Below are positions 8,178-43,955 of a stretch of 64,000 bases of DNA, piece by piece (position 1 is the stretch's first letter; every line of letters begins with the position of its first letter). Source of the DNA: an uncultured delta proteobacterium (lineage in GTDB: Bacteria; Desulfobacterota; Binatia; UBA9968); contig CAWFJP010000031.1 in the NCBI GenBank assembly GCA_963816145.1, positions 128,001 through 192,000 of the forward strand. Reading direction: 5' to 3'. The position numbers and the translations under genes were made by a program. The notes under the pieces were generated by a model. It did not search any database. It worked only from the letters and a program-made list of their open reading frames with translations, and was not told the origin of the DNA.

Positions 8178-8252
8178 ATGATCGCAAACGATATCCTGCT
8201 TGACGCCTTTACGCGCGTCCGCGAGTCGCTGCACCGGACCTTACTTGACCCC
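8178..8252 (+). pseudogene. N-terminal fragment of a DinB-like protein
   Basis: RBS GGAGGAG followed by MIANDILLDAFTRVRESLHRTL; similarity stops at CTTGACCCC. Confidence 0.5.
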
Positions 8253-8500
8253 GATGCGCTGTGAGCTCAGAAAGTTAGACCTCATGGGAGTCCGAGACGT
8301 TATCTGGAAGGGCATACCGGACGGAAAGATGCTTGCCGCGGACATGAAAAAAATAGGCTGAATGACGACGAGGATGGATAGCAAGTTACAACACCTAGTT
8401 CTCAAGGCTGCGCATAATTCCCTAACCAGGCGTCGCCGCAACGGTGATGGCCGCAGCGCGGCGTGTGTTCAATCAGCAGATCGGACAAGGAGGAGCTGCC

Positions 8501-9256
8501 ATGTCGTTTTACGAAAGTGGCCCGGTTCGCATTCGCTATGAGGAAGCCGGTTCCGGTTTCCCGTTGTTGCTCGTCCCCGGCGGGGGATTGAACTCGACGA
8601 TCGACGGCTTGAAGCGCGGCGGGCCCTTTAACGCCATCGAGGAGTTCAAGGGAGAATACCGTGGTATTTTTTCCGACATGCGAAACGCCAATGGCGGCCA
8701 GTCTTGCGGGCCGCTCGAGATCAATCGGCCGTGGGATGCCTATACCGATGATCATATCGGTGTGATGGATCACTTGGGAATCGACAAGTTCGTGGTCATG
8801 GGCTTCTGCATCGGCGGCCCATTGATTTGGAATCTTCTGAAGCGGGCGCCTGATCGCATCGTCGCGGCGGTGCTGGCGCAGCCGAGCGGATTTCGCCCGG
8901 AGCTGCCCAACCACTCATACGATAACAACATGAACGGCTGGGGCCCGGAGTTGGTCAAGCGCCGGCCCGATATCACAATGGAAATGATCGACAAATTTCT
9001 GACCAAGATGTACCGCACCGACGCCGACTTCGTCTGGACCGTAACGCGCGATTTCGTGCGCAACTGCCGGACGCCCGTATTGATCCTGCCGGACGATACA
9101 AAGCCGCATCCGTACGCTGTCGCCATGGAGAGCGCGATGCTCGCGCCGAAGGCGGAAGTGAGCATGTTCCCGTGGAAAGAGCCGAAGGAGCGGATTCCTT
9201 TGGCGGTGCGCCAAATACGTTCCTTCCTCCGTTCGCATCGGCTCGGTGCTGTTTAG
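8501..9256 (+). CDS. Alpha/beta hydrolase with Cys nucleophile elbow
   Basis: GSGFPLLLVPGGG and GFCIGG; RBS AAGGAGG. Confidence 0.88.
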   Translation: MSFYESGPVRIRYEEAGSGFPLLLVPGGGLNSTIDGLKRGGPFNAIEEFKGEYRGIFSDMRNANGGQSCGPLEINRPWDAYTDDHIGVMDHLGIDKFVVMGFCIGGPLIWNLLKRAPDRIVAAVLAQPSGFRPELPNHSYDNNMNGWGPELVKRRPDITMEMIDKFLTKMYRTDADFVWTVTRDFVRNCRTPVLILPDDTKPHPYAVAMESAMLAPKAEVSMFPWKEPKERIPLAVRQIRSFLRSHRLGAV

Positions 9257-9305
9257 ACGGCGTTGTCGCTCGACAACGCCATTGATAGCCAGCGACCGCG
9301 CGCAC

Positions 9306-9536
9306 CTATGCACGTGTTGTCAGGGATCGTTCGAGTGTTTCACGGATAAGCCGGGTGTACGGAATACCGCGTGCCTTGGCCTTTGCCTTAACTGCGTCAA
9401 GCAATGGCTTGGGGACGCGCATGTTGATCTGTGCTTCTTTCTTCTCGAACTCGAATCGCACCGGTTTGAATTGCGAAAAATCGAGATTTGAAAGGTTTTG
9501 AGCGAGAAGGTCTTCTGCTTATTTATTTGTCAGCTT
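9306..9536 (-). pseudogene. CopG/BrnA-like antitoxin pseudogene
   Basis: Own translation: KLTNK*AEDLLAQNLSNLDFSQFKPVRFEFEKKEAQINMRVPKPLLDAVKAKAKARGIPYTRLIRETLE; internal stop, 5' truncated. Confidence 0.72.
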
Positions 9537-9637
9537 ACGCGTCCAGTTGTAGCGCTGAAAATGAGTCGCTAAGCTTGGAAAACAGTAGATTTAAGAACGA
9601 CTGCTATTAATTTACAGTGACTTAGCTTGGTCCGACC
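9532..9637 (+). repeat. Repeat family 3 (probable RAYT 3' end), copy 1
   Basis: Aligns with 19080-19187: AGCTTACG..GAAAATGAG..GCTAAGCT..GACTTAGCTTGGTCCGACC. Confidence 0.75.
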
Positions 9638-10298
9638 GCGGAGCTCGGCAGTCAGCCGGGCAGCATGGTGGTTTTCGATCTGAACAGGGGTGGTCAGCCC
9701 GACGCCGCAACGGTCATCCGGAGCGGCAGCAACGCATCGGTGACACCGCGGCGATAATCCGCGTCGTTATTGCCAGGAGAACCGACTGGGTGATGCGTTA
9801 GGCCGAGCTGGGCGGAGGATGTGTAGTAGGAAAATTACTACCTTGGCGCAGTCGTGTCAGCGAAGTAAGCGCAGCTCAACTTTAGGCGGCGATGCGAACC
9901 TAAGGGTTGTTGGAAAATGATTTGTCCATAAGTGAGCCACTTCGGTAAATTCCCTCGCGTTCCTTGCGCCGAACACAGGCGCAGTCCATGCCACGCCGAA
10001 GCTCACCAGCTGCGAATGTGCACCGATGCAAAATCCGGTTCGATCTATCGCAATTATGCGAACAAAGCTGAAAGCGACATCCTGGAAAGCTAGCGGAATC
10101 ATTGTCGACACTCTTTCGGCATCCGTGTTGCTCTTCTGAATCATCTGTAGTTCGATCGTCGCTGCACGCACCCGCATCCGTTGGAGTGACACCTTCAAAA
10201 TCGGCGCCGGCGTTTCAAACCGGTTGGCCGCCAAATGTCAACAAGCCCTGCGTTGCTCAGGCTTTCGACCAAGGCGATTAACCCGGCGGAGGTTCCAA

Positions 10299-11099
10299 AT
10301 GGAAGAGCAAGCGAAGAAAAAAGTTCATATTACTTGGGAGGAGGCCGTCAGGGCGGAGGCGGAGCAAGACAAAGCGAGACAGGCGCGCTGCCGGCCCATA
10401 CCACCAAGTCAGCTGAAACTTGGCACCACGCTTTTCGTTCCCGGACATGCCCCGAAATTAATGGCTTCAGCGCTGCGTCTCTGGGACGTTGCGTCTAACC
10501 GCAGGCTTAGGACAACGACGGAAACGGCGGGAGCGCATTCTCGAATATCGGAGATTCGACACGAAGATCCGCCGGTGGAATCCCAACGCGGTCGATTCGG
10601 ACCACTCGCGGTTGGCGTAAGGGAAGAATCTCGGCGATTTGATATTAAGCGCGGCCCGACGAAATCGGCAATCGCAATAATCCTGGGGATGGTTTTAGCG
10701 GCCGGTGTCGGGACGGTGTCCTATCTGAGTGTCAAGCGGGGAGCCATTACTCAGCAACACCCAGGTCATACGTCTGAGCCGGAGTTGACGGTTGGCGGCT
10801 CAAAGGCCCAGTCCACCGCGCCTCAAATCGCTTCAACGAAGCCTGAACCCGTTCGGCCGGAAGGCCAAGAAATCGTCGCGAAAAATGGGCCGAGCTATTT
10901 GGGGGACTTTGATGTCGTCGACAACTCCTTTGTTCGCGATAAACCCGAATCAAACGCCATCATCATCGCGACCCTGCAACCCGGCACGCGGGTGAGGGTG
11001 GAAAGCAAATCGGGAGAGTATCTACATGTTCGCTCATTGAACGATGCGCAGGTTGACGGTTATGTGCATGAAGAAGACGCCTTCTTTCAGGCGCATTAA
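10299..11099 (+). CDS. Membrane protein with C-terminal bacterial SH3-like domain
   Basis: One TM segment (IAIILGMVLAAGVGTVSYL) and VRDKPESNAIIIATLQPGTRVRV...GYVH. Confidence 0.6.
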   Translation: MEEQAKKKVHITWEEAVRAEAEQDKARQARCRPIPPSQLKLGTTLFVPGHAPKLMASALRLWDVASNRRLRTTTETAGAHSRISEIRHEDPPVESQRGRFGPLAVGVREESRRFDIKRGPTKSAIAIILGMVLAAGVGTVSYLSVKRGAITQQHPGHTSEPELTVGGSKAQSTAPQIASTKPEPVRPEGQEIVAKNGPSYLGDFDVVDNSFVRDKPESNAIIIATLQPGTRVRVESKSGEYLHVRSLNDAQVDGYVHEEDAFFQAH

Positions 11100-11294
11100 A
11101 GAATGAGGGTCTATCTCCGTCGGACCGACCCCGATGCTCGGCGAACCCTTAGACTGCCAGGGTAGTCGAGATGTAAAAATCAGACTATCTTGAATTTCCC
11201 TTTGGCGTGAAGCATCGATCTCGCCGGCCGCTAACTGGCGCGCGTCTCGGGTGTCAATCCATGCCCGATCGCTGTTATTGTATATACGTAATCG

Positions 11295-11582
11295 ATGTTC
11301 GACCGGGATCTGCGAAAGGCCCGGAGTAACCGGCGCAAGCACGGCGTATCGCTCGACGAGGCCGCCACGGCAGTCCTTGATCCGTACGGCATGGACGGTG
11401 AAGATTTGGATTCCTCGGCTTCCGAACTCCGCCGGTTGCGCCTAGCCAAAAGCAGCATGGGTAGAGTGCTGCTCGTAGCGGATACGATAAGGAGTAAAGA
11501 CGATGAAGAAACGACGCGGATCATCAGCGCGCGGCGCGCGAGCCGGAAAGAACGCAAGCGGTATGAAGCCGAAGACAATTGA
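11295..11582 (+). CDS. brnT: BrnT family toxin
   Basis: KARSNRRKHGVSLDEA...RIISARRASRKERKRYE. Confidence 0.88.
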   Translation: MFDRDLRKARSNRRKHGVSLDEAATAVLDPYGMDGEDLDSSASELRRLRLAKSSMGRVLLVADTIRSKDDEETTRIISARRASRKERKRYEAEDN

Positions 11583-11796
11583 TTTTTCCGATATTCCCGA
11601 ATTGACCGACCGTCAGCTATCGTCCATGCGGCGGGTCGGCAGACCGACTATGGGTGACGAGCCGAGGAAGCTCATCGCGATTCGTTTGGACGCAAAGGTA
11701 TTGGCTTGGTTGCGCAAGACTGCCGCGAAAAAAGGGCTGCCGTATCAGTCGCTCGTGAACGAGATTTTGGCGAGTGAGATGCGCAAGGCGAGTTAG
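11563..11796 (+). CDS. brnA: BrnA family antitoxin
   Basis: IDFSDIPEL...IAIRLDAKVLAWLR...YQSLVNEIL; overlaps brnT. Confidence 0.9.
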   Translation: MKPKTIDFSDIPELTDRQLSSMRRVGRPTMGDEPRKLIAIRLDAKVLAWLRKTAAKKGLPYQSLVNEILASEMRKAS

Positions 11797-11864
11797 GACT
11801 GAGTGAGGCGAACAAAAAATATCGAGTCAAGCATCTTGACTGCTACGACACTAGACCTGACCCC
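11787..11864 (+). repeat. Repeat family 1 terminus
   Basis: GGCGAGTTAGGACTGAGTGA...GCATCTTGACTGCTACGACACTAGACCTGACCCC. Confidence 0.85.
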
Positions 11865-12035
11865 GTGCGCGATACAAGCTGAGTCCCTCGACATCAGCGT
11901 GCTCGGACGCGATATAACGAGTCTCTTTGCAGCGATTGTCGATCGTCCCGGCGATGTTGTGGCGTTGCTAGGGCAACGTCATCGCTATCGCATCGAGCAG
12001 ATCTGATCAGACACCCTAGATTTCAAAAGAGTGGA

Positions 12036-12371
12036 ATGCGACCGGTCCCGCCGGAGGAACTTCTCGATCCAGCTTAGCGTGGTCCGACCCGCGCACGTTG
12101 GTCGGCGGTTCTGACGGATGAATGAGGCATCAGAGGACACGACGATCCGGATCGACACGTTTTTCAAAGCATTCGCGGAATTCTGGACGACCCGGCAAAT
12201 GAACTGCCACCAGCGTAACTCCGAAAAGGCGCTGCCGGCGAGGGTGAGAAAGTGGAGCGAACACAACAGGAGCGTGCCGGCAAGTTAGGACTCAGCGGCG
12301 CGCATAAAAAATACAAAGCAAAGAGCTGACGCTATTGGCATCTTGACTGCCACGACTCTAGACGTGATCCC
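12036..12371 (+). pseudogene. Decayed higA (VapI-type) antitoxin plus family 1 terminus
   Basis: MRPVPP..., AEFW...SEKALPARVRKWSEHNRSVPAS*, then CTGACGCTATTGGCATCTTGACTGCCACGACTCTAGACGTGATCCC. Confidence 0.7.
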
Positions 12372-12476
12372 GCGCCTCTGAAAGGCAATTTGGTCGCGGG
12401 AGCATTCTATGTATATGAAAATAAACGTATTTCTCTCTAATGACCGAGCAAGACATCAGGACTGTCCTGAATCTGC

Positions 12477-12502
12477 TTGATACGTACGGCGATTTGCCGT
12501 AC
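12477..12502 (+). promoter_or_regulatory. TA promoter/operator
   Basis: TTGATA followed by palindrome GTACGGC-GATTT-GCCGTAC upstream of the DUF1778 antitoxin. Confidence 0.6.
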
Positions 12503-12528
12503 AGTTGGCTTGGTAAAGGAGATTCGCC

Positions 12529-12837
12529 ATGGCCTCTATGGAAGCGCACGAAATTGCGGAAAGCCAGAGCAACAAGACGGCACGCCTTGAAGCACGGATC
12601 ACGGAAGAGCAGAAGGAGCTTTTCACTAAAGCTGCCGCGCTGGTTGGACGCTCTCTGAGCGACTTTGTTGTGACCTGCGTCTCTGAAACCGCCGCCCGCA
12701 CCGTGCGAGAACACGAGGTCATGACACTGAGCGTCCGTGATCGTGAAATTTTCGTCAGCGCTCTTCTCAATCCTCCAAAGCCTGGAGCACGACTCCGCAC
12801 GGCGGCGCGACGCTACAAAGAACATGCCGGCAAATAG
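12529..12837 (+). CDS. DUF1778 RHH antitoxin (TacA/AtaR type)
   Basis: ARLEARITEEQKELFTKAAALVGRSLSDFV...LLNPPKPGARLR. Confidence 0.92.
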   Translation: MASMEAHEIAESQSNKTARLEARITEEQKELFTKAAALVGRSLSDFVVTCVSETAARTVREHEVMTLSVRDREIFVSALLNPPKPGARLRTAARRYKEHAGK

Positions 12838-13368
12838 ATGCCGCCAGAGGCTCGGGCGTCATCATGGCTTGTCGAGCGGCTGGGGAAACATGACCGCGCG
12901 GCCTTCACCTGCGGCAACAAAATTCTTGACCGCTATCTGAAAGAGATAGCCAGCCAGGACGCCCGGCGCCTGGTGGCCGCGCCCTTTGTTCTTGTCGAAA
13001 CGGCAGCGCCCAGAAGGATCTGCGGTTACTATACTCTTTCCTCATTCGGCGTTGCTCCCGGTGAGTTGCCCGTCGATGTGGCGCAGAAGCTTCCGGGCTA
13101 TCCCATTTTGCCGGCAACGCTTCTCGGCCGGCTCGCCGTCGATCAGCAACACAGAGGGCAGGGCGCAGGCGAGTTTCTGCTCATGGACGCGCTGCACCGC
13201 GCCCATACTCAGACATCGCAGATCGCTTCCTTCGCCGTCATCGTCGACGCCATCGATGAACAAGCGGCGCGTTTTTATCGGCATTTTGATTTCCTTCCGT
13301 TTCCGGACCGGCCGGACCGGCTTTTTCTTCCGATGAAAACCATCGCCGTCCTATTTCCCACAACATAG
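12838..13368 (+). CDS. GNAT acetyltransferase toxin (TacT/AtaT type)
   Basis: HDRAAFTCG, GYYTLS, LLGRLAVDQQHRGQGAG, VDAIDEQAARFYRHF. Confidence 0.92.
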   Translation: MPPEARASSWLVERLGKHDRAAFTCGNKILDRYLKEIASQDARRLVAAPFVLVETAAPRRICGYYTLSSFGVAPGELPVDVAQKLPGYPILPATLLGRLAVDQQHRGQGAGEFLLMDALHRAHTQTSQIASFAVIVDAIDEQAARFYRHFDFLPFPDRPDRLFLPMKTIAVLFPTT

Positions 13369-13477
13369 AGCGAACAAGGTTCGAGCAAAAGAAAAATTGC
13401 ATCCCAGACGTCTCGCGCAGTTACTCTTTACTGCAATGTCGGCGCGCGGCGCGCGAGCCGTAAAGAACGAAAGCGGT

Positions 13478-13711
13478 ATGAAGTCGAAGCAAATTGACTT
13501 TTCCGATATTCCCGAATTGACCGACCGTCAGCTATCGTCCATGCGGCGGGTCGGCAGACCGACTGTGGGTGATGAGCCGAGGAAGCTCATCGCGATTCGT
13601 TTGGACGCAAAGGTTTTGGCTTGGTTGCGCAAGACTGCCGCGAAAAAAGGGCTGCCGTACCAGACGCTCGTGAACGAGATTTTGGCCAGTGAGATGCGCA
13701 AGGCGAGTTAG
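13478..13711 (+). CDS. brnA: Second BrnA copy, orphan; only the last ~40 nt of brnT remain upstream
   Basis: Near-identical to 11563-11796. Confidence 0.88.
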   Translation: MKSKQIDFSDIPELTDRQLSSMRRVGRPTVGDEPRKLIAIRLDAKVLAWLRKTAAKKGLPYQTLVNEILASEMRKAS

Positions 13712-13911
13712 GGCTGAGTGACGCGGCAAGCAATGCGCGATAAGTCCGGAAAGTCGTGAAGAAAAGTCCAACCCCGATCACTCCTGACCCCGCGCCTCGT
13801 CCGGCGGGCGCCGATGGCGGGGATGCACTTTGCCGCGTGGGTGGCGGTGCGGGGTGATACTTGACCCGAGGCCGGCGCCGTAAATCCCTTAACGAGCACG
13901 GGTTGCTTGGT

Positions 13912-13940
13912 TTGACCATTAGATAATTACCGTGGTAATT
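13912..13940 (+). promoter_or_regulatory. vapBC promoter/operator
   Basis: TTGACC followed by palindrome AATTACC-GT-GGTAATT. Confidence 0.62.
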
Positions 13941-13947
13941 TAATGTC

Positions 13948-14211
13948 ATGGCTTTGGCGCAATCAAAAGTGACGGCTCAGGGGCAGATTTCCGTTCCGGC
14001 GGAAGTGCGGCGAAAACTCGGCATCGGCCCAGGCTCGGTGCTCGAATGGGACGAGGAAGGCGACGCCGTCGTCGTGCGCAAAGCCGGCCGGCATACCTCG
14101 GAAGAGATTCATCGGGCGATCTTTGGTCGGCGGGCGCCGGCGGCGAAGAAGGTGGAAGAGTTCGATGACGGCGTCCGGCGTTATCTGAAGAAAAAACATG
14201 CGCGCCGTTGA
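13948..14211 (+). CDS. AbrB/MazE/SpoVT antitoxin
   Basis: SKVTAQGQISVPAEVRRKLGIGPG. Confidence 0.92.
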   Translation: MALAQSKVTAQGQISVPAEVRRKLGIGPGSVLEWDEEGDAVVVRKAGRHTSEEIHRAIFGRRAPAAKKVEEFDDGVRRYLKKKHARR

Positions 14212-14578
14212 CACCAACGTCCTGGTCCGTCTGGTCGCGCGCGACGACCCCAAGCAGGTTACTGCCGCGGAATCATTCGTGAGCAAAGGGGCGTGGGTGT
14301 CGACGCTGGTTCTCATGGAAGCGACTTGGGTTCTCACGGCTGTGTACGACCTGACCCACGCGGATATCGCGACGGCCATCGACATGCTTTTGCACCACCG
14401 AGATCTGACCCTTCAAGAGCCCGACAGCGTGGCCGCTGCGCTCGAGCAGTATCGCAACCGGCCGGCGTTGGGGTTCGCCGATTGTATGATCCTCGAAGCA
14501 GCGCGGAAAGCCGGCCACCTGCCATTGGGAACCTTCGACCGCAATCTCGCCAAACTCGACGGCGCCGAAGGATTGTAG
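14198..14578 (+). CDS. vapC: VapC PIN-domain toxin
   Basis: AVDTNVLVR...FADCMI...TFD. Confidence 0.92.
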   Translation: MRAVDTNVLVRLVARDDPKQVTAAESFVSKGAWVSTLVLMEATWVLTAVYDLTHADIATAIDMLLHHRDLTLQEPDSVAAALEQYRNRPALGFADCMILEAARKAGHLPLGTFDRNLAKLDGAEGL

Positions 14579-14786
14579 ATCCAACGCATTTTGCCTTTTC
14601 CAAATTTCCGCCTGTTCGCGAAAAATTCTCTGGCGGTTGGTTCCGATGGCGTCGGCTCATTATGCGACGGTGGCTGCAGCGCTGCTCTCCGGCTGGGTGG
14701 GGGCGCGGGCCAAGGCTTAATGCTTTTCAGTGGAGTCAACGCGACCGGGAAGCCGATTTGGTGCAGGTCTGGAATTACGATCTCTG

Positions 14787-14815
14787 TTGACGACATGTCA
14801 GGTCTGACATACACT
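14787..14815 (+). promoter_or_regulatory. Sigma70 promoter with operator
   Basis: TTGACG-17 nt-TACACT; ATGTCAG-GT-CTGACAT palindrome in the spacer. Confidence 0.7.
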
Positions 14816-15156
14816 TGGCGTCGGTGGCCTCGGCAGATAAACCGCTTGTCTGGTTGAAAGGAGAAATAAAAACTCCGCCGTTCTCGTCGACCGCCAGATT
14901 GGAAGCAGGGTATTTGCTTCGCAGGCTGCAGCAGGGCGATACGCCGGCGATGCCTCATTCTCGACCGCTGCCGTCGGTCGGCTCGCGTTGCCATGAGTTG
15001 CGAATCAACGACGAGCGAGCGACGTGGCGGATTATTTATCGGATCGATTCGGACGCGATCATCATCATCGCGGTCTTCAGTAAAAAGACCAGGGCGACCC
15101 CCAAGGCGGTCATTGACGAATGCAAAAAGCGATTAAGGAATTACGACCATGCGTAA
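14815..15156 (+). CDS. higB: RelE/HigB-like toxin (Gp49/DUF891 type); start may be GTG 14824
   Basis: KPLVWLKGEIKTPPFS...SRPLPSVGSRCHELRI...VFSKKT. Confidence 0.85.
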   Translation: MASVASADKPLVWLKGEIKTPPFSSTARLEAGYLLRRLQQGDTPAMPHSRPLPSVGSRCHELRINDERATWRIIYRIDSDAIIIIAVFSKKTRATPKAVIDECKKRLRNYDHA

Positions 15157-15472
15157 GCAAAAGAAAAAACGTCTGGAGGCGAAGGGTTGGAAAATCGGCA
15201 CCGTCAAAGAGTTTTTGGGTCTATCCGACGAGGAGTCCGCATACATCGAGTTAAAGGTGAAGCTTGCAGCCGGTCTGAAGCAGCGGCGGCAGCAACAAGG
15301 TTTGTCGCAGCTGGAGCTCGCGGCAAAACTTCAATCGAGCCAATCGCGTGTCGCCAAGATGGAAGCAGGCGACCCCTCGGTTTCCTTGGATCTGTTGGTC
15401 CGTTCCCTCATTACGCTCGGGACTTCGGACCGCGAGCTGTCTCAGATCATCGCCACTCGCCGAGCCGCGTAA
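15149..15472 (+). CDS. higA: XRE-HTH antitoxin
   Basis: LSQLELAAKLQSSQSRVAKMEAGDPSVSLD; follows the toxin. Confidence 0.85.
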   Translation: MRKQKKKRLEAKGWKIGTVKEFLGLSDEESAYIELKVKLAAGLKQRRQQQGLSQLELAAKLQSSQSRVAKMEAGDPSVSLDLLVRSLITLGTSDRELSQIIATRRAA

Positions 15473-15736
15473 CCGGACGTGCCGTAGAGCAATTGACAAT
15501 CGGCTCGGTGGGTAATCCGGGATAATTCGTCCAACCTGAAAGACAGGACCGCGCTCTCGCGTTGACCACGTGGTGAGACCGACGCAAATCCGAAATATCA
15601 AACTGCAAGATGCGACCCCGGTGCCCCGGTCTGGGGCTTTTCTCCGATCGCGAAGGTATATACTCGCCGCTTCGCCGATGTCTTCTTCTCACATTTGTAA
15701 TTCAGAGGGATGCTGGCCCAACGCTATCAGCGTTCC

Positions 15737-15765
15737 TTGATTGTGACTACAATTAGAACTACAAT
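15737..15765 (+). promoter_or_regulatory. Sigma70 promoter, probably leaderless
   Basis: TTGATT-17 nt-TACAAT, ACTACAATT repeated twice; GTG start 6 nt downstream. Confidence 0.65.
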
Positions 15766-15771
15766 TCTCGC

Positions 15772-16065
15772 GTGAATGAAATCGTCTTCTCTCCGGCCGC
15801 GGTGCGCCAGTTCAAACGGCTGCCTGCCGCGGCCCGAAGGCTGATTAAGGAGAGCATACGCGAACGTTTGTCGGAACAAGATCCTACGGAAGAAACCCGC
15901 AATCGCTTTCGGTTGCGGCGAATCTCTGAGCACGCGGATTACGAGCTTCGCGTTGATCCGTGGCGCGTATTTTACCGTGTCCAAAATAAATCAGTGACAG
16001 TTGAGCTGATTGGACAGAAGAAGGGGAACGTCCTCTTGATCGAAGGGAAGGAGTTTGCGCTGTGA
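15772..16065 (+). CDS. RelE/ParE family toxin
   Basis: IVFSPAAVRQFKRL...YELRVDPWRVFYRV. Confidence 0.85.
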   Translation: MNEIVFSPAAVRQFKRLPAAARRLIKESIRERLSEQDPTEETRNRFRLRRISEHADYELRVDPWRVFYRVQNKSVTVELIGQKKGNVLLIEGKEFAL

Positions 16066-16310
16066 AAATCGAAAGTCTCCGTGAAGTTAAAGCAAATTTG
16101 AGCAAGATCGTTAACGAGTTGCCTTCGGAACGGTCGGTCGTGATCACCAAAAATGGCCGTCCTTGCGCGGTGCTTTTCCCTGTCACCGAGGACACAGACA
16201 TTGAAAGCATGGTGCTCGCGCAAAATAAGGAGTTCTGGCAACTCATGGACCGCGCTCACAAAGAAGGAGAAAAAAAGGGGTTTACCAGACTCGAAGACTT
16301 GCCTGATTAG
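16062..16310 (+). CDS. Phd/YefM antitoxin
   Basis: SLREVKANLSKIV...VVITKNGRPCAVL. Confidence 0.9.
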   Translation: MKIESLREVKANLSKIVNELPSERSVVITKNGRPCAVLFPVTEDTDIESMVLAQNKEFWQLMDRAHKEGEKKGFTRLEDLPD

Positions 16311-16313
16311 GCG

Positions 16314-16559
16314 ATGCGACCGGTTCCGCCGGGAGAAATTCTTATCGAGGAGTTTTTGCAACCCCCGGGTCTCACGGCAAGCGCGCGAGCCAAGGCGACC
16401 TGCGCAACGCCGAAAAGGCGCTGCCGGCGAGGGTGAGAAAGAGGATCGAACAAAACAGGAGCGTGCCGGCGAGTTAGAACCGAGTGACGCGAACAAGAAA
16501 TATAAAGTAATGATCTGACGCTATCGGCATCTTGACTGCTACGACTCTAGACCTGACCC
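16314..16559 (+). pseudogene. Internally deleted higA plus family 1 terminus
   Basis: MRPVPPGEILIEEFLQPPGLTASARAKA joined to DLRNAEKALPARVRKRIEQNRSVPAS*, then ...GGCATCTTGACTGCTACGACTCTAGACCTGACCC. Confidence 0.8.
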
Positions 16560-16615
16560 GATTTCCTGTGCTGTTAACAAAAAATTTGACCCCTTTGGCT
16601 GGTTCCCGCCGTTTC

Positions 16616-17329
16616 TCACATCTGGAGCGAGAGAAACTCATCGATGGCGCGGTTCACTTCTGCAGGCCGCTCGGCGAAGGGGAAATGACCGCAACCGTTT
16701 AGCTTCACGTACTGTGAACCGGCAACAGCCTGGTGGATCTCGAGCTCGTATTCCGGCGTCTTGGCCGGATCGTCGACGCCGCGGATCAAAAGCAGCGGCG
16801 GCTCGAGAGTATGAATGCGGTCCCGGACATCGAACTGATCGATCGCGACAAAATCACGATACTGCGACAATGGACCCACCCGACGGTGACATTCGACGAG
16901 ACGTTCGCCCAGCTCCGGCTCCATAAACGAAAATTGATGCCGCATGAGCTCCAGCCATTGCCGGTACGACTCGGGATCCGCCGTGGCTTTCGAGCGCAGC
17001 TCCAGCGCCCCCGGCGCGCGCTCGCGCGGGCGCATGCCCGTCGTCATCAGCACCAGCGCCTTGACCTCGTCGGGATAGTCGAGAGCGTATTGGAGCGCGA
17101 TGCAACCGCCCAAGGTATAGCCCACCAGCACCAGCTCTTTCCGTTTGCCTTGCGACCATAACCAGCCTCTCAGCCATTCCGCATATCGCTCCACACTCGT
17201 ACAAGCGGCTCCTTCGGGATGTCCCGGCAAGGTTGGCGCGAGGCTGCCCGGATAATGCTCGAGCTGATACACGAACGATTCGGCGCACCCGCCGGCGCCG
17301 GGCCCGTGAATGAAAACCATCTGCGTCAT
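16616..17329 (-). CDS. Alpha/beta hydrolase
   Basis: VFIHGPG, GYTLGG elbow, GHFPFAE. Confidence 0.88.
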   Translation of the reverse strand: MTQMVFIHGPGAGGCAESFVYQLEHYPGSLAPTLPGHPEGAACTSVERYAEWLRGWLWSQGKRKELVLVGYTLGGCIALQYALDYPDEVKALVLMTTGMRPRERAPGALELRSKATADPESYRQWLELMRHQFSFMEPELGERLVECHRRVGPLSQYRDFVAIDQFDVRDRIHTLEPPLLLIRGVDDPAKTPEYELEIHQAVAGSQYVKLNGCGHFPFAERPAEVNRAIDEFLSLQM

Positions 17330-17357
17330 AGGTTGTTCGGCCTCCTTGGGTCCTAGG

Positions 17358-18710: not shown

Positions 18711-18757
18711 GCGCCACCTCGTTCATCCAACTGACACGGTGTTGAAAAGCCTTGATT

Positions 18758-18903: not shown

Positions 18904-18959
18904 CTAACCCTGACTTACTCCAGCCGGCAACTTGATTGCAATGGGATGAGAAAGCGCGC

Positions 18960-19187: not shown

Positions 19188-19197
19188 GCACGTCCTC

Positions 19198-19246: not shown

Positions 19247-19285
19247 TTGCCCAGCGACCCTCAAGGCCCTGCTGTGATGTCACCC

Positions 19286-33340: not shown

Positions 33341-33517
33341 GGGGCCAGGCCTTTCAATCTTAACAATCATCCAGCCCCTTTCTCGCTCTCAATTTCATAA
33401 CCTCTTGCTCGCGATCGCCGCGCCTTCCGGCCGGCAGGACACGTAAGTTCGCCCACGCGGTCTGCGGGCGTCCTCGCCCGCCCAGGCCGCAGTCGGTGCC
33501 GGCGATGGCGTTTTCTC
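33333..33517 (-). repeat. Repeat family 2: MetE-like tail plus terminus
   Basis: Minus strand ENAIAGTDCGLGGRGRPQTAWANLRVL..GAAIASKRL, then TTGTTAAGATTGAAAGGCCTGGCCCCAGATTTTC. Confidence 0.85.
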
Positions 33518-33578: not shown

Positions 33579-33884
33579 TTATGTTGAGCTACGTTCTTGC
33601 CAATAACGAGGACGCCGTTTTCCGTGGGCTACGGCGAGAACAACAACCTCTTCGCCGTGCAGCTCGTAGATAATCGAATAGGGGAATTTACGAACGATGA
33701 ATCGCCGCCGTTGGTTATCGAACTTCGGCCAGCGCAGCGGGCTCTGCGAGATGAGACGGACGCCGCGGTCTACTTCAGTTTCAAAGTTTGCAGCTAATGT
33801 GGCGCCGCGATCATGATACCACGAATAAGCTGCGGCATAGTCTTCGGAAGCGCCCGGATGAAACGTAACCTTAGCGAGAGCCAC
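33579..33884 (-). CDS. RelE/ParE toxin
   Basis: VTFHPGASED...FPYSIIY...LAVAHGKRRPRYW. Confidence 0.9.
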   Translation of the reverse strand: MALAKVTFHPGASEDYAAAYSWYHDRGATLAANFETEVDRGVRLISQSPLRWPKFDNQRRRFIVRKFPYSIIYELHGEEVVVLAVAHGKRRPRYWQERSST

Positions 33885-34110
33885 GAATCCGTTCTCTCGC
33901 TCGAGACTTTACAGCGGCCCAAGGTATGGGGCGGACGATTCCTTGTTTGACTTCATCGGAGCGGCGTTCGACTTCCGCACCCCAAGCTGCATCGACATCG
34001 TCGTCGCTCTGCGGATCTAGGCTCGCCAGTAGTTCCTCGACGATTTCGAGTCGATCGTTTTCGGGAAGTCGTTTGGCTGCGTTGACAATGTCTTTGGCAG
34101 GGCGTGTCAT
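33871..34110 (-). CDS. Addiction-module antitoxin (TIGR02574-like)
   Basis: LPENDRLEIVEELLASL...AWGAEVERR...IPW. Confidence 0.9.
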   Translation of the reverse strand: MTRPAKDIVNAAKRLPENDRLEIVEELLASLDPQSDDDVDAAWGAEVERRSDEVKQGIVRPIPWAAVKSRARERIRGSR

Positions 34111-34201
34111 GGATCAAACCTCACAATTTCAGTCGGTACAGTAAAACCCCGCTCTTTTAGCCGGTTACCGAGCAGGACTTAAGTTTATTACCATTTCCAG
34201 A

Positions 34202-34245
34202 GGGGCGCCAGGGTCATAGGCGCCAGGGCCTGAGTATTGACTTGT
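34202..34245 (-). repeat. Degenerate terminus motif
   Basis: GGGGCGCCAGGGTC..GCGCCAGGGCCTGAGTATTGA; the TGAGTATTGA arm is shared with 26203 and, with one mismatch, 37040. Confidence 0.5.
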
Positions 34246-34940: not shown

Positions 34941-35014
34941 TGAGCGGGATTCTAGCAATTGCTATACGTCACCGCAAACCTCAATCGACTGTTCTCGCCG
35001 CAAGGGAATCAACT

Positions 35015-35168
35015 GGGGCCAGGCCTTTCAATCTTAACAATCTTCCGGCCGCTTTCTCGCCCTCATTTCCACAACTTTTTGCTCGCGATCGCCGCGCCGT
35101 CGCGCAGGACAGGTAACTTCGCCCACCCGATCTGCGGGTGTACTCGCCCGCGTAGGCGCCAGTCGAGC
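35015..35168 (-). repeat. Repeat family 2: MetE-like tail plus terminus
   Basis: Minus strand GRVHPQIGWAKLPVLRDGAAIASKKLWK*, then TTGTTAAGATTGAAAGGCCTGGCCCC. Confidence 0.87.
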
Positions 35169-35220: not shown

Positions 35221-36777
35221 TTAACCTGCCGGCACTTTGGCCACGGGCTTGCCGCGGAGCCCTGCCTTAACAAGCTGCGCGAGAAATTCGGCGAACGGCG
35301 CAATGTTCTGCCGCACGCTCGCATCTTCAAGAGCAGCCATGTAGGCATGGCGCCGCTCCAAAGGCACCACTGTCCAGGGGTAACCGCCTGAAGCCAGCAT
35401 CACGTTCATCAGGAAGCGGCCGATACGGCCGTTGCCGTCCATATAGGGGTGGATATAGACGAAGATGAAATGCCCGAGCACGACCCGCACCGACGGCTCG
35501 GATTCCTGCGTCAGCATCTCGAAAAATACCGGCATGGCATCGCGCACCGCTTTGTAGTCGGGCGGAACGTGCATTGAGCGCCGGATATAGACGGGCGCGT
35601 TGCGATGCCCGGCAAGGTCTGCAGGCCGCAGCAAGCCAGCGGTGACGCTCGGTGCAAACATTTCCCGGTACCATGCTCCGTGATCCTCCTCGGCGACGTT
35701 GCCGGGATTCTCGCCGGCCAGCACCCGGCGCACGCTCTTCTGCACGGCCTGGAATGCCAGCCAGTAGCCTCTTGCCGCCAGAGCATTGCGGTGCTCGCGG
35801 TCCTGTTCGTTTGCATCAGGGTTCCAAGTGCCGCCGCGCACCCGCTCGATCAGCGCGGGGCTGACGCGGTAGCCTTCGATCGATAGCGAGTGATAGGCGT
35901 CGGTGACATAAACATCCTGCACATGCTTGAGATAGGTCTCGATATTCTTCGGCCGTCCCGGCGATTCAGGAAATTTTTCGATGACGGGGCCGCGCATCTG
36001 CTGCCACGTCAGGCGGATGCGGCCCGCGTAAGGAGACGCTTCGCGCCGGGGAAGCACGAGATTGATCCTGCCGGCGAACGGGTCTTGTTCACGCACGTCG
36101 TAACCGGCAGCGCGCATGGCGCTGACGATGTCATCCGCAATGCGGTCGCGGCCGATGTTGCGGAACGCTCCGGCAAGCCGTCCGGCAATCGTGCTGTGCC
36201 CGCCCTCCAGAAGGCGGTTTAGCACTTCGGAAGCATCGCGGATCGCCGCAAGCGCGGCGCGCGCGTCGGTAGGGTTGTTTTCGAAAAACGCGGGCGAGCT
36301 GGCAATGAGAGAAGCAAGCAGCGAAAACAGCCTCAGCCCTTCTTTCTCCTCGATATCTTTCTCATCCGGGATGGCGGTGCGAACATCCAGAAGCGATGTT
36401 CCGTAGGGAAGCGGTGTCGCGTTGTTGCCCCCTCGCGGCGAGCGCACCACGAGCTGGGGCGGCACCGTTCGGTTGCCGGTATGCAGAGAGAGGGAATGCT
36501 CCGGTGATAGACACCACGCGCGGCCAAAGCGCTCGCGCAGGTAGGCCGCGCAAAAGGCCCAGAACGAGGCGTACCAGGCTGTGCTTTCACCGGCGGCGTC
36601 ATCCGGGCGCGCGGCTATGTACCAGCCCTTGATGACCTCTTGCAGGAAGCCGTTCTTTAGCAGGCGCTCCCGGTGGGCACGGGAAAGATCGGCTGCCCGG
36701 ATCGCGGCAATGCCCTGGTCCTGAAGCGCCTTCAGGGCGTCAAGGGATTCAGCCAGTTTTTCCTGTGGCGATGGCAT
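35221..36777 (-). CDS. Fic family protein, 518 aa with a long N-terminal extension
   Basis: Fic motif HPYMDGNGRIGR. Confidence 0.93.
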   Translation of the reverse strand: MPSPQEKLAESLDALKALQDQGIAAIRAADLSRAHRERLLKNGFLQEVIKGWYIAARPDDAAGESTAWYASFWAFCAAYLRERFGRAWCLSPEHSLSLHTGNRTVPPQLVVRSPRGGNNATPLPYGTSLLDVRTAIPDEKDIEEKEGLRLFSLLASLIASSPAFFENNPTDARAALAAIRDASEVLNRLLEGGHSTIAGRLAGAFRNIGRDRIADDIVSAMRAAGYDVREQDPFAGRINLVLPRREASPYAGRIRLTWQQMRGPVIEKFPESPGRPKNIETYLKHVQDVYVTDAYHSLSIEGYRVSPALIERVRGGTWNPDANEQDREHRNALAARGYWLAFQAVQKSVRRVLAGENPGNVAEEDHGAWYREMFAPSVTAGLLRPADLAGHRNAPVYIRRSMHVPPDYKAVRDAMPVFFEMLTQESEPSVRVVLGHFIFVYIHPYMDGNGRIGRFLMNVMLASGGYPWTVVPLERRHAYMAALEDASVRQNIAPFAEFLAQLVKAGLRGKPVAKVPAG

Positions 36778-36792
36778 CGGTACGTTCCATTA

Positions 36793-36912
36793 TTAGTTTT
36801 TGGTGCCGGATATATGTTAGTTTATTATGTTGTACTATTATTAGTTTATTATGCTGTAGCATTTTTAGTTTATTCTGTCGAGCGTCTTTTAGTCTCTTGT
36901 GCGGGTTGATTT
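36793..36912. repeat. Five 24-bp-period tandem repeats upstream of fic
   Basis: TTAGT at 36793, 36817, 36841, 36865 and 36889. Confidence 0.85.
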
Positions 36913-37281
36913 TGAGCATATAAGCGAGTGCTAAAGTAAGGCTAAGCATAGAGAGCATAGAGCGATCGAGAGCATAGAGGGTCGCATCTTTACTTAAGGC
37001 GTTCGGCTGTCGATTACCCACGGGTTATCGGGCCGAGCCTGGGTATTGAGTTATTTTTTCCCGACCGACGGGACCCTAGGTACAGGCTCCGGTCTTGAAT
37101 CAATGCAGACGAAAGACCAATGGGCGACCCGAACTCCGTCTTGAGTCGAGTTTGATTTTTGGAAAAGAACTTTGAAAGGCACCGGTGGCGTGCTGATAGC
37201 TGATGGCCGGCGGGCCGTAGACCGTGACTTGGTCCTCTTTTAGCCGGGCATAAATTTTATGCTCGTCATAGCGCTTACGCG

Positions 37282-39205: not shown

Positions 39206-39291
39206 TGCGGCATAGAGGGCCGCTTCGAGCAGAAATCCCAAGGTCATTCCTGCCTGGATGGCCCGAAAATCTGCGGCCAGGTCTTTCAGTT

Positions 39292-39577
39292 TTAACCCTA
39301 GACCGACAATAAAAATTCGCTTCCACTTGGCATCACGTGAAAGATGAACCATTCTCTCCGGGCTATCTGGAATAAGATTTCCTTCCCCCGTCTCGGGGGA
39401 AGGAAGGATGGGGGCCGTCTCCGGCTGCGACTGTTTGCCCCCACCTTCATCCTCCCCCGAGGCGGGGGAGGAAATAAAAAGTCACCGCCCGTTATGCTTC
39501 TTGGCCTCCGTGCACTCCGACTTTGTACTCTCAAACTCAAAAAGAATACGCTTCAGATATTGTCGGTTTAAGGTTAA
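39292..39577. mobile_element. MITE copy 2, inserted at the TTAA of a family 2 repeat (39265-39645)
   Basis: Direct repeat of 38577-38859; the flanks rejoin as GAAAATCTGCGGCCAGGTCTTTCAGTTTTAACAATCCTCCAGCC. Confidence 0.85.
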
Positions 39578-39648
39578 CAATCCTCCAGCCCGTTTCTCAC
39601 CCTCAACTCCACAGCTTCTCACTCGCCATCGCGGCGCCGCAGCACCGG

Positions 39649-41112: not shown

Positions 41113-41267
41113 AGGTCGTAGCTGAAACCCCTTTCATCGTTACGGGTCGACGCTTGCGCCCCGTGCGCTCTGGCCGGAATGAGTCCTGTAATATGCAAGC
41201 GGGCCGTTGATCTGACGCGATGCTATATAGTCTGGCTCGCGGGCCGTCAAGCGAGTGACGCCGGCGT

Positions 41268-41834
41268 TCAGCCGCAGACGCCGCCGAGCAGGCCGCTCTT
41301 CAATCCGGGATTCGGCGTGTTGGCGCCGAGCCAGATCGAAAAGAACGCTTTGGCGAAATCGTCGCCCTTGATCGTGCCTTTGGCCGCGCCGTTGACATCC
41401 ACTTCGAGCCCCATGCCGGGTCGATATACGAAGGTCAGGCGTTGGCCGGTTTTCATATCCGCCATCCAGCCCTTGAGCGTCTCGAGATAATCCCTGAACG
41501 GCGCGAGCCGCTTGTCGAACCCTTCGTCCCAGGCTTTGTTGAGCTCGGCGGCGCTGACGTTGCGCAGGAACTGAAGGACCAGTCGTTTCGGGCTGCTCGA
41601 ACCGAGCAGCAGATTGGCGTCGGCGGAGGTCTTGGTCACGTAAAGCGCCGCGACATAGACGTTGACCTTCAACATCGTCGCCTGCCGGAGCCCCAAACCG
41701 TTGAGCGCGAGGGCGCGCCCGTCGACCTGGAGCTGATCCGGAAAACTGACGCCTTTGCATTCCTTTCCCTGTGCCGGCGCAACGGCCAACGCCATGATGA
41801 TGCCCAGTGAGACCAGCAATAAATTCCGTGTCAT
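41268..41834 (-). CDS. Exported chalcone-isomerase-like protein
   Basis: LNGLGLR..VYVAALY...FAKAFFSIWLG...LKSGLLG. Confidence 0.85.
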   Translation of the reverse strand: MTRNLLLVSLGIIMALAVAPAQGKECKGVSFPDQLQVDGRALALNGLGLRQATMLKVNVYVAALYVTKTSADANLLLGSSSPKRLVLQFLRNVSAAELNKAWDEGFDKRLAPFRDYLETLKGWMADMKTGQRLTFVYRPGMGLEVDVNGAAKGTIKGDDFAKAFFSIWLGANTPNPGLKSGLLGGVCG

Positions 41835-42191
41835 CTTTGCTCCATGATGGTAAAATTTGCCGGTTGCCTGAGCGTTGGCGGCGATTGCTCGTCACCCAAC
41901 TAAACCTTGCGAGCAGCGAGAGACATCATAAGCGGTGAAGTCTTGTTTCTTGCTGTCAATCCCCGCGTAGGCTTTCACTGTTCCCATGCCAGGAAAGTCC
42001 TGACAATCACAGCTCGGCTCGCCGGCGTTCGAGAACGTAGGTCAAGAGTTTAGCGTCCGCCTTCGTTTGTCTGCTGGTGAAGTTTTCCTGACGCGAGCGC
42101 AGACCCAGATCAAGTAGAGAAACTCCGACCCTCTCGCTTGCCTGTCGCTCTCCCGGTGTATTTGTTTGCGCAAAAACGTTCGTCGAGCCGT

Positions 42192-43712
42192 TTAGCCTGT
42201 GATTTTCATTTCCGAGGCAAGAATCTTGCCGTCCGGTGAGCCCTTCCAGATAACGTTTCGCGCCACGCCGTAAAGTTCCGCCAGCGTATAGAGCGGCGCG
42301 AACGGCACGTCGTCCATGAGAATGCGGCCCGCCTGATGGAGAATCGCGATGCGCTTCTTGTGATCGCCGGTGCGTTGTTCCTCGTCGATGAGCTTGTCGA
42401 ATTCCGGATTGTTGTAGTTGATGCGCTTGGAACCGCCGGTGCGAAAATATTGTTCGAAATAGACATCGGCGTCGCTACCGTTGCTGCCGGCGTAGTAGAA
42501 CGGCAACTTGCCGCCGTTGACGCCGTCCTTGCCCCAGTAGATGGCGTACTCTTGCGGCACCAGCTCGACTTTGATGCCGGCCTTGCCCAACTGATCGGCG
42601 ATCACTTCGCAAACCTCTTTGCCTTTGAGGTGGCGGTCCGGGGCCAAATAGAGCTTGGTCTCGAGTCCGTTCGGATAACCGGCTTTGGCCAGCAGCTCGC
42701 GGGCTTTTTTCGGGTCGTAAGGATAACGCTTGATCTTCGGGTCGAAGCCCACCCAATTGGAGCCCAGCGGGCCGTTCACCACCGCGCCGTGGCCGTCGTA
42801 GATATGCTTCAACATGACGTGGGGATCGAGGGCGTAGTTGATCGCCTGGCGCAGGAGCTTGTTGTCGAAAGGTTTCATCTGCACGTTCATGCCGAGAAAA
42901 TACATGCGAAAGCCGACCACCTCCTGAAGCCGAACGCGCGGATGCTTGGCGATGCGGTCGACCTCTTCGATGGGCAGATTGCTGATCAGATCCGCCTGCC
43001 CCGCCGACAGCCCCGCCACGCGCGCCGATTCCTCCTTGACGCCTTTGATGATCACCTCGCGGATTTGCGGCTTGGCGCCCCAGTATTCGTCGTTGCGCCG
43101 CAGCACCAGGTTGCCGCCGCGCTGCCAGCTGACGTATTTGTACGGCCCGGTGCCGGCGGTGGCGTTGTCCAGATCGTCGCCGTATTCCTTCGACAGAATA
43201 AACCGCGTCTCCAGCCTGGTGAGCAAAAGCGCGTTGGGCGTCTTGGTCGTAAGAACGACGGTGTAATCGTCGGGTGTTTCGACCTCGACGCCTTGCACGT
43301 AGGCGCCCTGCAAGCTGCGCTTGTCGTTTTGCAATTTGTCGATGGAGAACGCCACGTCCTTGGAGGTAAACGGCGCGCCGTTGTGAAACCGCACACCTTT
43401 GCGCAAGTGAAAAATCCACTTGCGCCCCTGAAACTCCCACGACTGAGCCAGCACGCCGACATATTCGTTGCGGTCATAATCCATCTGGATCAGCGGCTCG
43501 ATGACGTGGCGCCAGATCCCCGTGATGCCGCCGCCGCTGTAGCCGTAGGGATGGAGCGAGTCGAGACTGACGCCCTGATAGATGACGATGCGATCTTTAG
43601 TTGCCGCCGCCGCCCGTGACGCCAAGGCCGGCGCCAAGAGGGTTCCCAATCCTAGAGCTGCGCTGTGGCGCAAGAATTGGCGCCGATCGAGCGCCGTGTC
43701 AGGTTTACGCAT
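42192..43712 (-). CDS. ABC peptide/nickel substrate-binding protein (family 5), Tat signal
   Basis: RRQFLR, LRKGVRFHNGAPFTSKDV, GTGPYK, LRQAINYAL. Confidence 0.93.
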   Translation of the reverse strand: MRKPDTALDRRQFLRHSAALGLGTLLAPALASRAAAATKDRIVIYQGVSLDSLHPYGYSGGGITGIWRHVIEPLIQMDYDRNEYVGVLAQSWEFQGRKWIFHLRKGVRFHNGAPFTSKDVAFSIDKLQNDKRSLQGAYVQGVEVETPDDYTVVLTTKTPNALLLTRLETRFILSKEYGDDLDNATAGTGPYKYVSWQRGGNLVLRRNDEYWGAKPQIREVIIKGVKEESARVAGLSAGQADLISNLPIEEVDRIAKHPRVRLQEVVGFRMYFLGMNVQMKPFDNKLLRQAINYALDPHVMLKHIYDGHGAVVNGPLGSNWVGFDPKIKRYPYDPKKARELLAKAGYPNGLETKLYLAPDRHLKGKEVCEVIADQLGKAGIKVELVPQEYAIYWGKDGVNGGKLPFYYAGSNGSDADVYFEQYFRTGGSKRINYNNPEFDKLIDEEQRTGDHKKRIAILHQAGRILMDDVPFAPLYTLAELYGVARNVIWKGSPDGKILASEMKITG

Positions 43713-43830
43713 TGGAGTTCTCCCGCGCTAAAGTGAGCCCGTTATATTCAGCCTGCCACGAACCTGTCAATAAAAATCTCCGCGGTATCAAGGATCATGG
43801 ATCAACTGTCGGATCATGCTTTCTTGCTAT

Positions 43831-43955
43831 CCATCCTCCCCGATTCCCCCCGCCACTCCACAGCTTCTCACTAGCTATCGCCGCGCCATCGCGCGGGACA
43901 GGTAACTTCGCCCGCGCGATCTGCGGGTGTACGCGCCCGCCTACGCCGTAGTCGT
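43831..43955 (-). repeat. Repeat family 2, degenerate MetE-like tail
   Basis: Minus strand DYGVGGRVHPQIARAKLPVPRDGAAIASEKLW. Confidence 0.75.

Follow-up and report, generated by a model that had tools for sequence, protein, structure and literature searches.

The region considered here is a stretch of 64,000 nt (the window; coordinates refer to it unless a contig is named), which corresponds to positions 128001-192000 of contig C31 in the genome G000 of an uncultured delta proteobacterium of the class Binatia (7.8 Mb, 31 contigs, 56-57% G+C). Pfam domains identify at 8-27 kb the toxin-antitoxin (TA) operons BrnT/BrnA, TacA/GNAT, MazE/PIN, Gp49(HigB)/HTH (twice), ParE/Phd and AF2212/PIN and a second BrnA, together with two alpha/beta hydrolases, an MmgE/PrpD protein and a Schlafen-type helicase. 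Beyond 27 kb there follow a ParE/antitoxin pair, a Fic protein and numerous metabolic genes. Judged by its letters, the terminus ...CTGACCCC, which is repeated between these genes, coincides with the outer end already described for TIRtron inverted repeats: its consensus STSWCCCC is the reverse complement of GGGGWSAS, the TIRtron terminus in the consulted sections of the literature. Positions 8-27 kb, with a shorter, reversed part at about 33-37 kb, appear to form a TA/defence island of modules each ending in one terminal inverted repeat (TIR) end. The ends of this island all point along the genes and none points in the opposite direction, and several retain the last codons of a TIRYT gene.

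TIRtrons consist of TIRYT genes, encoding RAYT-like HUH proteins of the Y1 type, flanked by TIRs that share the terminus GGGGWSAS, that is GGGG[AT][CG]A[CG] (PMC3733652). TIRYT proteins are the subclass 2.1 of Y1 proteins with Bac_DnaA_C or HTH tails (PMC6006769). The TIR repeat families are moderately abundant and may be single, dimeric or clustered (PMC3733652). The motif system as such, including its repeat families and clusters, is thus already published, as far as the consulted sections of these two papers go.

The long form of the motif is rare in the window. Exact CCTGACCCC occurs three times (11856, 13783 and 20434), always on the plus strand, and the 12-mer RGRCCTGACCCC, with up to one mismatch allowed, has 6 occurrences where 0.91 would be expected. 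Its core GACCCC is the most enriched plus-strand hexamer of the 8-27 kb part: at 8,000-27,000 there are 17 copies on the plus strand and none on the minus strand, with 2.4 expected per strand (Poisson 8e-10). The bin 140,000-150,000 of contig C31, with 10 copies on one strand against a mean of 1.26, is the maximum among all 10-kb bins of the 7.8-Mb genome. TGACCC is found 11 times on the plus strand and never on the minus strand at 8,000-21,700, and switches to the minus strand from 22 kb onward, as the genes do. Cumulative GC skew keeps climbing across the whole window, including the region of about 22-26 kb where the motif flips; thus its orientation follows the genes and not replication. 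About 10 of the 17 GACCCC copies are intergenic module ends with mutually unrelated upstream sequences.

The ends were scored against the published STSWCCCC, taking the 15 plus-strand sites listed in an earlier note on this DNA and the one at 16593. Three of the 16 are exact, nine have one mismatch, three have two and one has three; the ends 11132, 13791 and 24224 have in common merely the last 6-9 nt. The plus-strand series of the earlier note therefore stands as an enriched oriented core (17 copies against none) and is overstated as a long motif, which is strict in 3 of 16 ends. The comparison with background that the note had suggested came out in its favour, the core exceeding expectation (17 against 2.4) on one strand and in the top bin of the genome. 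Its account of the gene content, TA operons, a Fic gene and gene fragments co-oriented with the motif, is borne out by Pfam, with metabolic genes to be added.

Three intact TIRYT genes, of about 320 aa, were found in the host genome, on contigs C29, C3 and C18. The TIRYT class is distinguished by a RAYT-type Y1 HUH core, a greater length than RAYT and a C-terminal HTH or DnaA-like domain. HVH and GRY motifs can be recognised in the TIRYT translation. The C29 protein matches Y1_Tnp (2.7e-16) and Bac_DnaA_C (3.2e-7) of Pfam, and among NCBIfam profiles it has 66 bits for REP_Tyr_transpos against 17 for transpos_IS200. The three proteins score 66-74 bits with the former (cut-off 80) and 17-28 bits with the latter (cut-off 55); by these profiles all appear closer to RAYT than to IS200, though under the RAYT equivalog cut-off. 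A PDB sequence search with TIRYT gave no match. The C29 gene lies between GGGGTCAGGCCTGAGTATTGA and TCAATACTCAGGCTTGACCC (upstream and downstream, respectively), and its left end fits GGGGWSAS exactly (GGGGTCAG); the flanks of the C3 gene (GGGTCAAATCTTTAC and TAAAGATTTGACCC) and of the C18 gene fit it approximately. The 20 TIRYT genes of four relatives have GGGTCA at most 130 nt upstream in 14 cases (chance 0.022) and TGAC[CA]C at most 40 nt from the stop in 14 cases (chance 0.012), 12 genes having both. TIRYT is multi-copy in the genus, with 4-31 matches per genome, including tandem co-oriented copies, set among Rhs-like fragments. The HUH/RAYT-like link of the earlier note is thereby upheld: the motif is the reverse complement of the TIRYT TIR terminus, inverted copies of it stand on either side of the TIRYT genes in this genome, and one local repeat family (family B, below) is the 3' end of TIRYT.

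In one relative (locus L070, G014:C8:230000-249999), three intact TIRtrons and two partial ones lie in tandem in one direction among Rhs/YD-repeat-like gene fragments. Thus TIRtrons cluster outside TA islands too. Tandem duplications of 8-18 nt, made of the last TIR bases and the adjoining flank, occur at either end of intact TIRtrons in relatives as well as at solo ends (loci L074, L075, L076, L081, L083, L086 and L090; L031:10976-12030; window 26145-26163 and 34200-34225; C31:192090-192123). The host genome has a second, separate Y1 system as well: a 209-aa Y1_Tnp protein, putatively RAYT-like, at G000:C3:724497-725126 (L015), with flanking palindromes (GGGGCGGGTTTCAAACCCGCCCCTACAT) and three paralogues elsewhere at 44-45% identity.

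The array of the 8-27 kb part is read on the plus strand. TTGACCCC at 8247-8252, in a short open frame and with one mismatch to STSWCCCC, is a doubtful member of the series. The first module carries an alpha/beta hydrolase gene (8444-9256; Abhydrolase_1, 1.2e-9) and is followed by a family B copy at 9532-9640, a TIRYT 3' remnant with the end ..TAGCTTGGTCCGACC, which reads ..SSEN..WDE.. before a stop, like the C-terminus of the C18 TIRYT. Next come an SH3-domain protein gene with the end ..GGACCGACCCC at 11127-11132 (10224-11132; Pfam and sequence) and a BrnT-BrnA operon (11295-11864; BrnT_toxin, BrnA_antitoxin) whose A-type tail (11831-11864; repeat D9) ends in CTAGACCTGACCCC, an exact STSWCCCC. 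The interval 12040-12091 holds a higA-type N-terminal fragment, read by sequence, and a short B-type end GCTTAGCGTGGTCCGACCC. At 12103-12372 a decayed higA is followed by the 3' remnant of a brnA (..GAGTTAG) and an A-type tail; repeat D1 (185 nt), to which this higA belongs, is a decayed higA fused to the final bases of a brnA.

The module 12529-13791 consists of a TacA-GNAT (TacT-like) operon, a duplicated brnA (13397-13711, 95% to 11524-11810) and the end CCTGACCCC (13783-13791). It is followed by a MazE/AbrB-PIN operon and a Gp49(HigB)-HTH operon closed by ATATCAAACTGCAAGATGCGACCCC (13948-15619), where homology to G003 ends at 15618. A ParE-Phd operon, a decayed higA (16315-16499), an A-type tail (to 16560) and a second end TTTGACCCC (16585-16593) make up 15772-16593. 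At 16600-19187 the alpha/beta hydrolase and MmgE/PrpD genes, both on the minus strand, precede the C-terminal TIRYT remnant (18964-19170) and the family B end GGTCCGACCCC. Behind this lie a 5'-truncated A-type copy (19198-19247) and a Gp49(HigB)-HTH operon with a decayed higA and an A-type tail ending in CTTGACCTGACCC (19293-20294); contig C9 of G014 has the same gene order with the tail TAAAAGATTTTACCC. The interval 20300-20442 is a 141-nt 3' fragment of a genus-wide gene, ending in CCTGACCCC, whose copy in the same genome lies at C10:87027-87167. It is succeeded by a short B-type motif GCTTAGCGTAGTTCGAC, an AF2212-like/PIN operon and an A-type tail ending in CGGACCCC (20444-21670). The row closes at 21754-24224, which has genes on both strands: an 87-aa open reading frame (plus), the gene of a Schlafen-group-3/DUF2075-type helicase (22053-24173, minus) and ACGACCCC (24217-24224, plus).

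Three local repeat families carry the motif. The fixed 3' end with variable upstream length, claimed in the earlier note for all copies, is true of family A and also of the C10 gene fragment; the copies of family C and of the TCAATACTCAGGC type are other repeats. Family B is made of the last ~30 codons of a TIRYT gene and 16 nt ending in GGTCCGACCCC (36% identity over 69 aa, E 5.6e-5). The same stretch had been considered as an attC-style hairpin, a reading dropped as the main one, the stretch being TIRYT coding sequence. The sequence TTGGCATCTTGACTGC, contained in the A-type copies (e.g. 12335-12352), looks by eye like a sigma-54 promoter of the -24/-12 kind. An element of ~165 nt (18740-18906), with many copies of ~80% identity across many genomes of the genus, lies downstream of 18730 and separates the PrpD gene from the TIRYT remnant.

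On the minus strand at 26-44 kb GACCCC shows no excess over expectation. The minus-strand copies listed in the earlier note for this region cannot be kept as such; they are mostly family C, an inverted A-type copy and TCAATACTCAGGC.. repeats. At 26145-26212 a TCAATACTCATGCCTGACGC repeat adjoins an A-type end in which TGACCC stands three times in tandem (26145-26163). Repeat comparison gives a family C copy ending in ..AGGCCTGGCCCCAGAT at 33326-33495 and others at 26236-26391, 30447-30508, 35000-35165, 39268-39296, 39600-39638 and 43849-43954. The family C terminus ..AGGCCTGGCCCC(AGAT) is seen at 33341 and 35015, is degenerate at 26245, 30468 and 39273, and resembles the TIRtron end AGGCCTGACACCAGAT of G014. 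Family C was also considered as a gene remnant; this was dropped, as the open frames of 5 genomes that its 45-aa reading matched were all short (35-103 aa).

The reversed stretch contains, on the minus strand, an operon of a ParE toxin and an Unstab_antitox antitoxin (33579-34110; Pfam), with a type-1 repeat on one side and a family C copy on the other. The type-1 TIR copy TCAATACTCAGGCCCTGGCGCC with a tandem duplication of CCCTGGCGCC occupies 34200-34240, the gene of a Fic-domain protein 35221-36777 (Pfam), and a type-1 copy (TCAATACCCAGGC, 37037-37049) is followed by a type-2 copy (TAAAGATGCGACCC, 36979-36992). Repeats of the TCAATACTCAGGC.. type are at 26200, 34228 and 37037; there are 22 copies genome-wide, three of them at 26-38 kb of the window. 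TAAAGATNYGACCC has 24 copies in the genome and one in the window. For these two TIR types and for family B, the likeness of window copies to TIRs goes beyond the 6-mer. About five head-to-tail copies of an AT-rich 24-nt unit lie at 36784-36903, at the start of the Fic gene and on the opposite strand.

Relatives carry the shared modules in other contexts. The unpublished genome G005 was also among the matches, but nothing here is based on it. The G018 homology on its contig C18 is 98% over 16600-18730, continues into family B and ends exactly after GGTCCGACCCC, whereas other window genes are 81-86% identical to G018; thus the module 16600-19187 looks recently exchanged. In the G003 locus (75% identity, below the 80% filter and counted apart) homology stops after ..GATTTGACCC, that is at window position 15619. 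The piece 20300-20440 (141 nt) copies the 3' end of the gene on C10, and homology stops at CCTGACC, a native look-alike of the motif.

Near-identical DNA to part of 11001-21000 was found in soil/wetland metagenome runs (20 rows, 19 studies). Junctions were followed in Logan contigs of four soil/wetland runs; these contigs are short, parts that they leave uncovered are uninformative, and one of the runs may be the source sample. The junctions 9640, 11132, 11864, 12091, 16560, 19187/19247, 20442 and 21670 are spanned by contigs from the four runs, and therefore are not an assembly artefact of the host genome alone. One contig joins 11816 to 12312, an A copy to an A copy. A single contig, at depth 4.5 and a likeness threshold of 90, links 11794 to 15678 across 28 letters that include TCAATACTCAGGCC; this joint and those that go back were too weak to use.

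The single TIR ends that close the row of TA modules in the same direction hint at a role in cassette shuffling. We tentatively regard the solo ends as live substrates of TIRYT enzymes that act in trans, cut outside ...CCCC and rejoin co-oriented ends, a reading that falls a little short of probable. In such a process TIRYT would nick one strand immediately outside ...CCCC, and the nicked end would be rejoined to another co-oriented end. The segment between two ends, or one upstream of a look-alike site, could then be excised, inserted beside an existing end, or exchanged. The outcome would be an array that behaves partly like an integron without an integrase. The tandem duplications of terminus and flank would fit repeated processing at the ends, and are possibly footprints of repeated cutting and joining. 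Going further, TIRYT proteins in trans might be single-strand site-specific recombinases working on co-oriented solo ends, with excised circles re-inserted beside another end, an integron-like gene-cassette system run by HUH enzymes and not by a tyrosine recombinase; this stronger version we consider rather unlikely. Of the integron-like array built in trans that the earlier note had proposed, the HUH/RAYT-like link stands; capture and excision at the motif are conjectural and, in our view, doubtful.

A number of observations weigh against modules moved by TIRYT. The activity of TIRYT on TIRs is proposed rather than shown, as far as the consulted sections of the source go (PMC3733652). Contig C31 contains no intact TIRYT gene, and the window has only the C-terminal remnant at 18964-19170; therefore any enzyme action would be in trans. 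Homology breaks at the outer end of the motif amount to three cases only. In a systematic count over matches with at least 80% identity and 100 nt, 2 of their 26 distinct right ends fell within 4 nt of a motif end, against 0.2 expected, and 94 of 5000 random draws reach 2; most matches end simply at gene ends. The comparison with sister genomes proposed in the earlier note is thus mixed. The left borders of shared modules lie 6-90 nt past the preceding motif and not at it. Among nine loci of relatives, exact GACCCC is clearly co-oriented in one (L031, 11 against 2), the others having 1-5 against 0-3. Likewise, the association with TA genes that the note expected genome-wide is a weak excess only: for TA toxin genes outside the array, within 2 kb of 29 loci, the count is 23 on the same strand against 12 on the opposite one, with 15.7 expected (sd 4.2) and the loci partly non-independent. 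The check for circular junctions turned out negative, no circles or precise excision being found in the short Logan contigs of the four metagenome runs. The A-type tail is confined to the host genome, where it stands behind four different genes, and relatives have other tails behind the same higA; near-identical brnA copies also differ in their tails. Therefore tails also spread, or are replaced, independently, like dispersed repeats.

A serious rival is a passive explanation, in which dispersed TIR repeats (REP-like or MITE-like) and decayed TIRtrons have accumulated in a recombination-prone TA island and the enzyme moves no modules. Repeats would insert between operons, and homologous recombination or deletion at them would yield the coincidences at the junctions. 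We think this quite possible, although on the whole we doubt it. Single, dimeric and clustered TIR families are already described, in the sections consulted (PMC3733652), the genome-specific A-type tail behind four different genes, the weak genome-wide TA association and the 2 of 26 match ends are what one would expect, the contig joining 11816 to 12312 connects two A copies, and the decayed higA and brnA remnants show much deletion. However, the decay of whole TIRtrons should leave both orientations, whereas 17 GACCCC against none and 11 TGACCC against none were observed, with an orientation that tracks genes rather than replication. It also has to be accommodated that a chromosomal gene fragment ends exactly at a look-alike site and that a 98% module ends exactly at the outer end of a TIR. 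A further conceivable source of the excess, chance or codon usage through GAC-CCC codons in co-oriented genes, deserves almost no credence. Four of the 17 copies do lie within Pfam-supported plus-strand genes (14246, 15096, 15371 and 20661), and therefore part of the excess may be at the codon level, which also counts against TIRYT action. Yet about ten copies lie between genes, at module ends that are preceded by unrelated sequences, the core reaches its genome-wide maximum here, and the motif is tied to TIRYT flanks.

Two other enzyme classes have to be weighed against TIRYT. Mobilisation of the one-ended or rolling-circle kind, started at the motif by a Y2 or Rep enzyme as in IS91, ISCR and Helitrons, would agree with the fixed 3' end and variable 5' extent of family A and of the C10 gene fragment, and the genome does have one Y2_Tnp (IS91-family) gene. 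It lies on C14, directly after a tyrosine recombinase gene (the two at G000:C14:677375-679207), and neither GACCCC nor GGGGTC was found within 6 kb of it; the motif flanks the Y1 TIRYT genes instead. This makes such mobilisation very unlikely, and IS91/ISCR and Helitrons, which the earlier note had cited for the fixed-end pattern, are the wrong class of HUH enzyme. A degenerate integron array, that is an attC cluster without integrase served from elsewhere, would explain the cassette-like sizes (0.15-2.6 kb), the co-orientation and the TA-rich content. Two IntI genes above the TIGR02249 cut-off are indeed present at G000:C15:184057-185001 and 202187-203131 (L001, L002, L016), both with canonical GCCTAAC...GTTAGGC attC arrays. 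The absence of IntI claimed in the earlier note is thus correct for the window and for contig C31, which has no Phage_integrase matches or tyrosine recombinase genes, and incorrect for the genome. Its claim that the window lacks convincing attC sites holds. These sites are imperfect hairpins R''(RYYYAAC)-L''...L'-R'(GTTRRRY) at cassette ends. A strict scan found none in the window, but is insensitive, finding only one site (on both strands) in the true C15 array. A relaxed scan for paired xxxxAAC/GTTxxxx hairpins counted 41 over the 64 kb of the window, which is background (21-64 in 8 random chunks), with none at module junctions; at C15 it gave 20 per 20 kb. Since the C15 sites are canonical, the window hairpins are at background and the family B hairpin belongs to the coding part of a TIRYT remnant, a degenerate integron is hardly credible. 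Directly upstream of each C15 intI there are repeated 9-nt units (GTTCAAANC).

Some features of the window lie apart from the array. The only Rfam match at gathering level is a group II intron at 19-241 (plus strand; domains D1-D4, RF02005, 164 bits). A 558-aa open frame behind it (172-1848, plus) encodes a putative reverse transcriptase of the intron. A tRNA search of the window found none. A long perfect-looking palindrome at 7990-8075 (CACCACGAAG...CTTCGTGGTG) recurs many times in relatives and has very high metagenome contig depth with many differing flanks. Tandem paralogous genes at 61861-63997 form three long direct repeats of 75-78% identity, spaced by ~1.17-1.19 kb; several copies are also present in relatives.

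TIRYT/TIRtron elements are widespread, and their activity or role is not shown in the published accounts as far as consulted. Where one and the same oriented TIRtron end closes each module of an array, as here, there is a concrete, testable link between TIRtrons and the way in which TA/defence islands outside integrons are assembled. If a cassette system run by HUH enzymes exists, it would allow TA and defence modules to be stocked and exchanged between lineages. If the repeats are passive, the array would still illustrate well how TIR repeats can mark the seams within such islands, which is useful for annotation and of modest importance.

Among known systems, the array is closest in its parts to TIRtrons, with which it shares the terminus GGGGWSAS, the Y1 HUH core with a DnaA-like or HTH tail, and single or clustered TIR repeats (PMC3733652, PMC6006769). 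It differs in that the window copies are one-way solo ends, 3' of TA and other modules, some with TIRYT remnants, and with homology breaks at their outer end. Gene modules or TA operons are not mentioned in the consulted parts of either paper, and the literature on RAYT with TA and on HUH gene cassettes, TA and TIRs, judged by titles and abstract openings, describes no such arrays. REPtrons (RAYT with REP/REPIN) are alike in having a domesticated-looking Y1 HUH enzyme flanked by inverted short repeats that are also dispersed between genes, and the host genome has a classical RAYT with palindromic flanks too. However, the window motif has no GTAG/CGTC tag or strong hairpin and tens rather than hundreds of copies, and TIRYT, with 4-31 matches per genome in the genus against the single-copy RAYT, falls under the RAYT equivalog cut-off.

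With integron arrays, and with clusters of attC sites lacking an integrase (CALINs), the array shares small co-oriented modules, many of them TA, each closed by an element resembling a recombination site, and, as in CALINs, there is no enzyme gene nearby. In contrast to these, the window has neither attC structure nor a tyrosine recombinase, and the conserved part is the 6-8-nt terminus of a transposon TIR. The IS200/IS605 elements, which move by 'peel and paste', belong to the same Y1 HUH superfamily, and, as in these elements, precise ends and no target duplication were seen at TIRtron flanks; their strand-specific logic would account for the co-orientation. On the other hand, they have dissimilar left and right subterminal hairpins instead of TIRs, and TIRYT is twice as long and scores 17-28 bits with transpos_IS200 against the cut-off of 55. 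The pdif modules of Acinetobacter plasmids are likewise small and in many cases TA operons; they lie between short recombination sites and are shuffled from one replicon to another. The pdif sites are those of XerC/XerD and alternate in orientation, whereas the sites of the window are co-oriented and of the HUH type.

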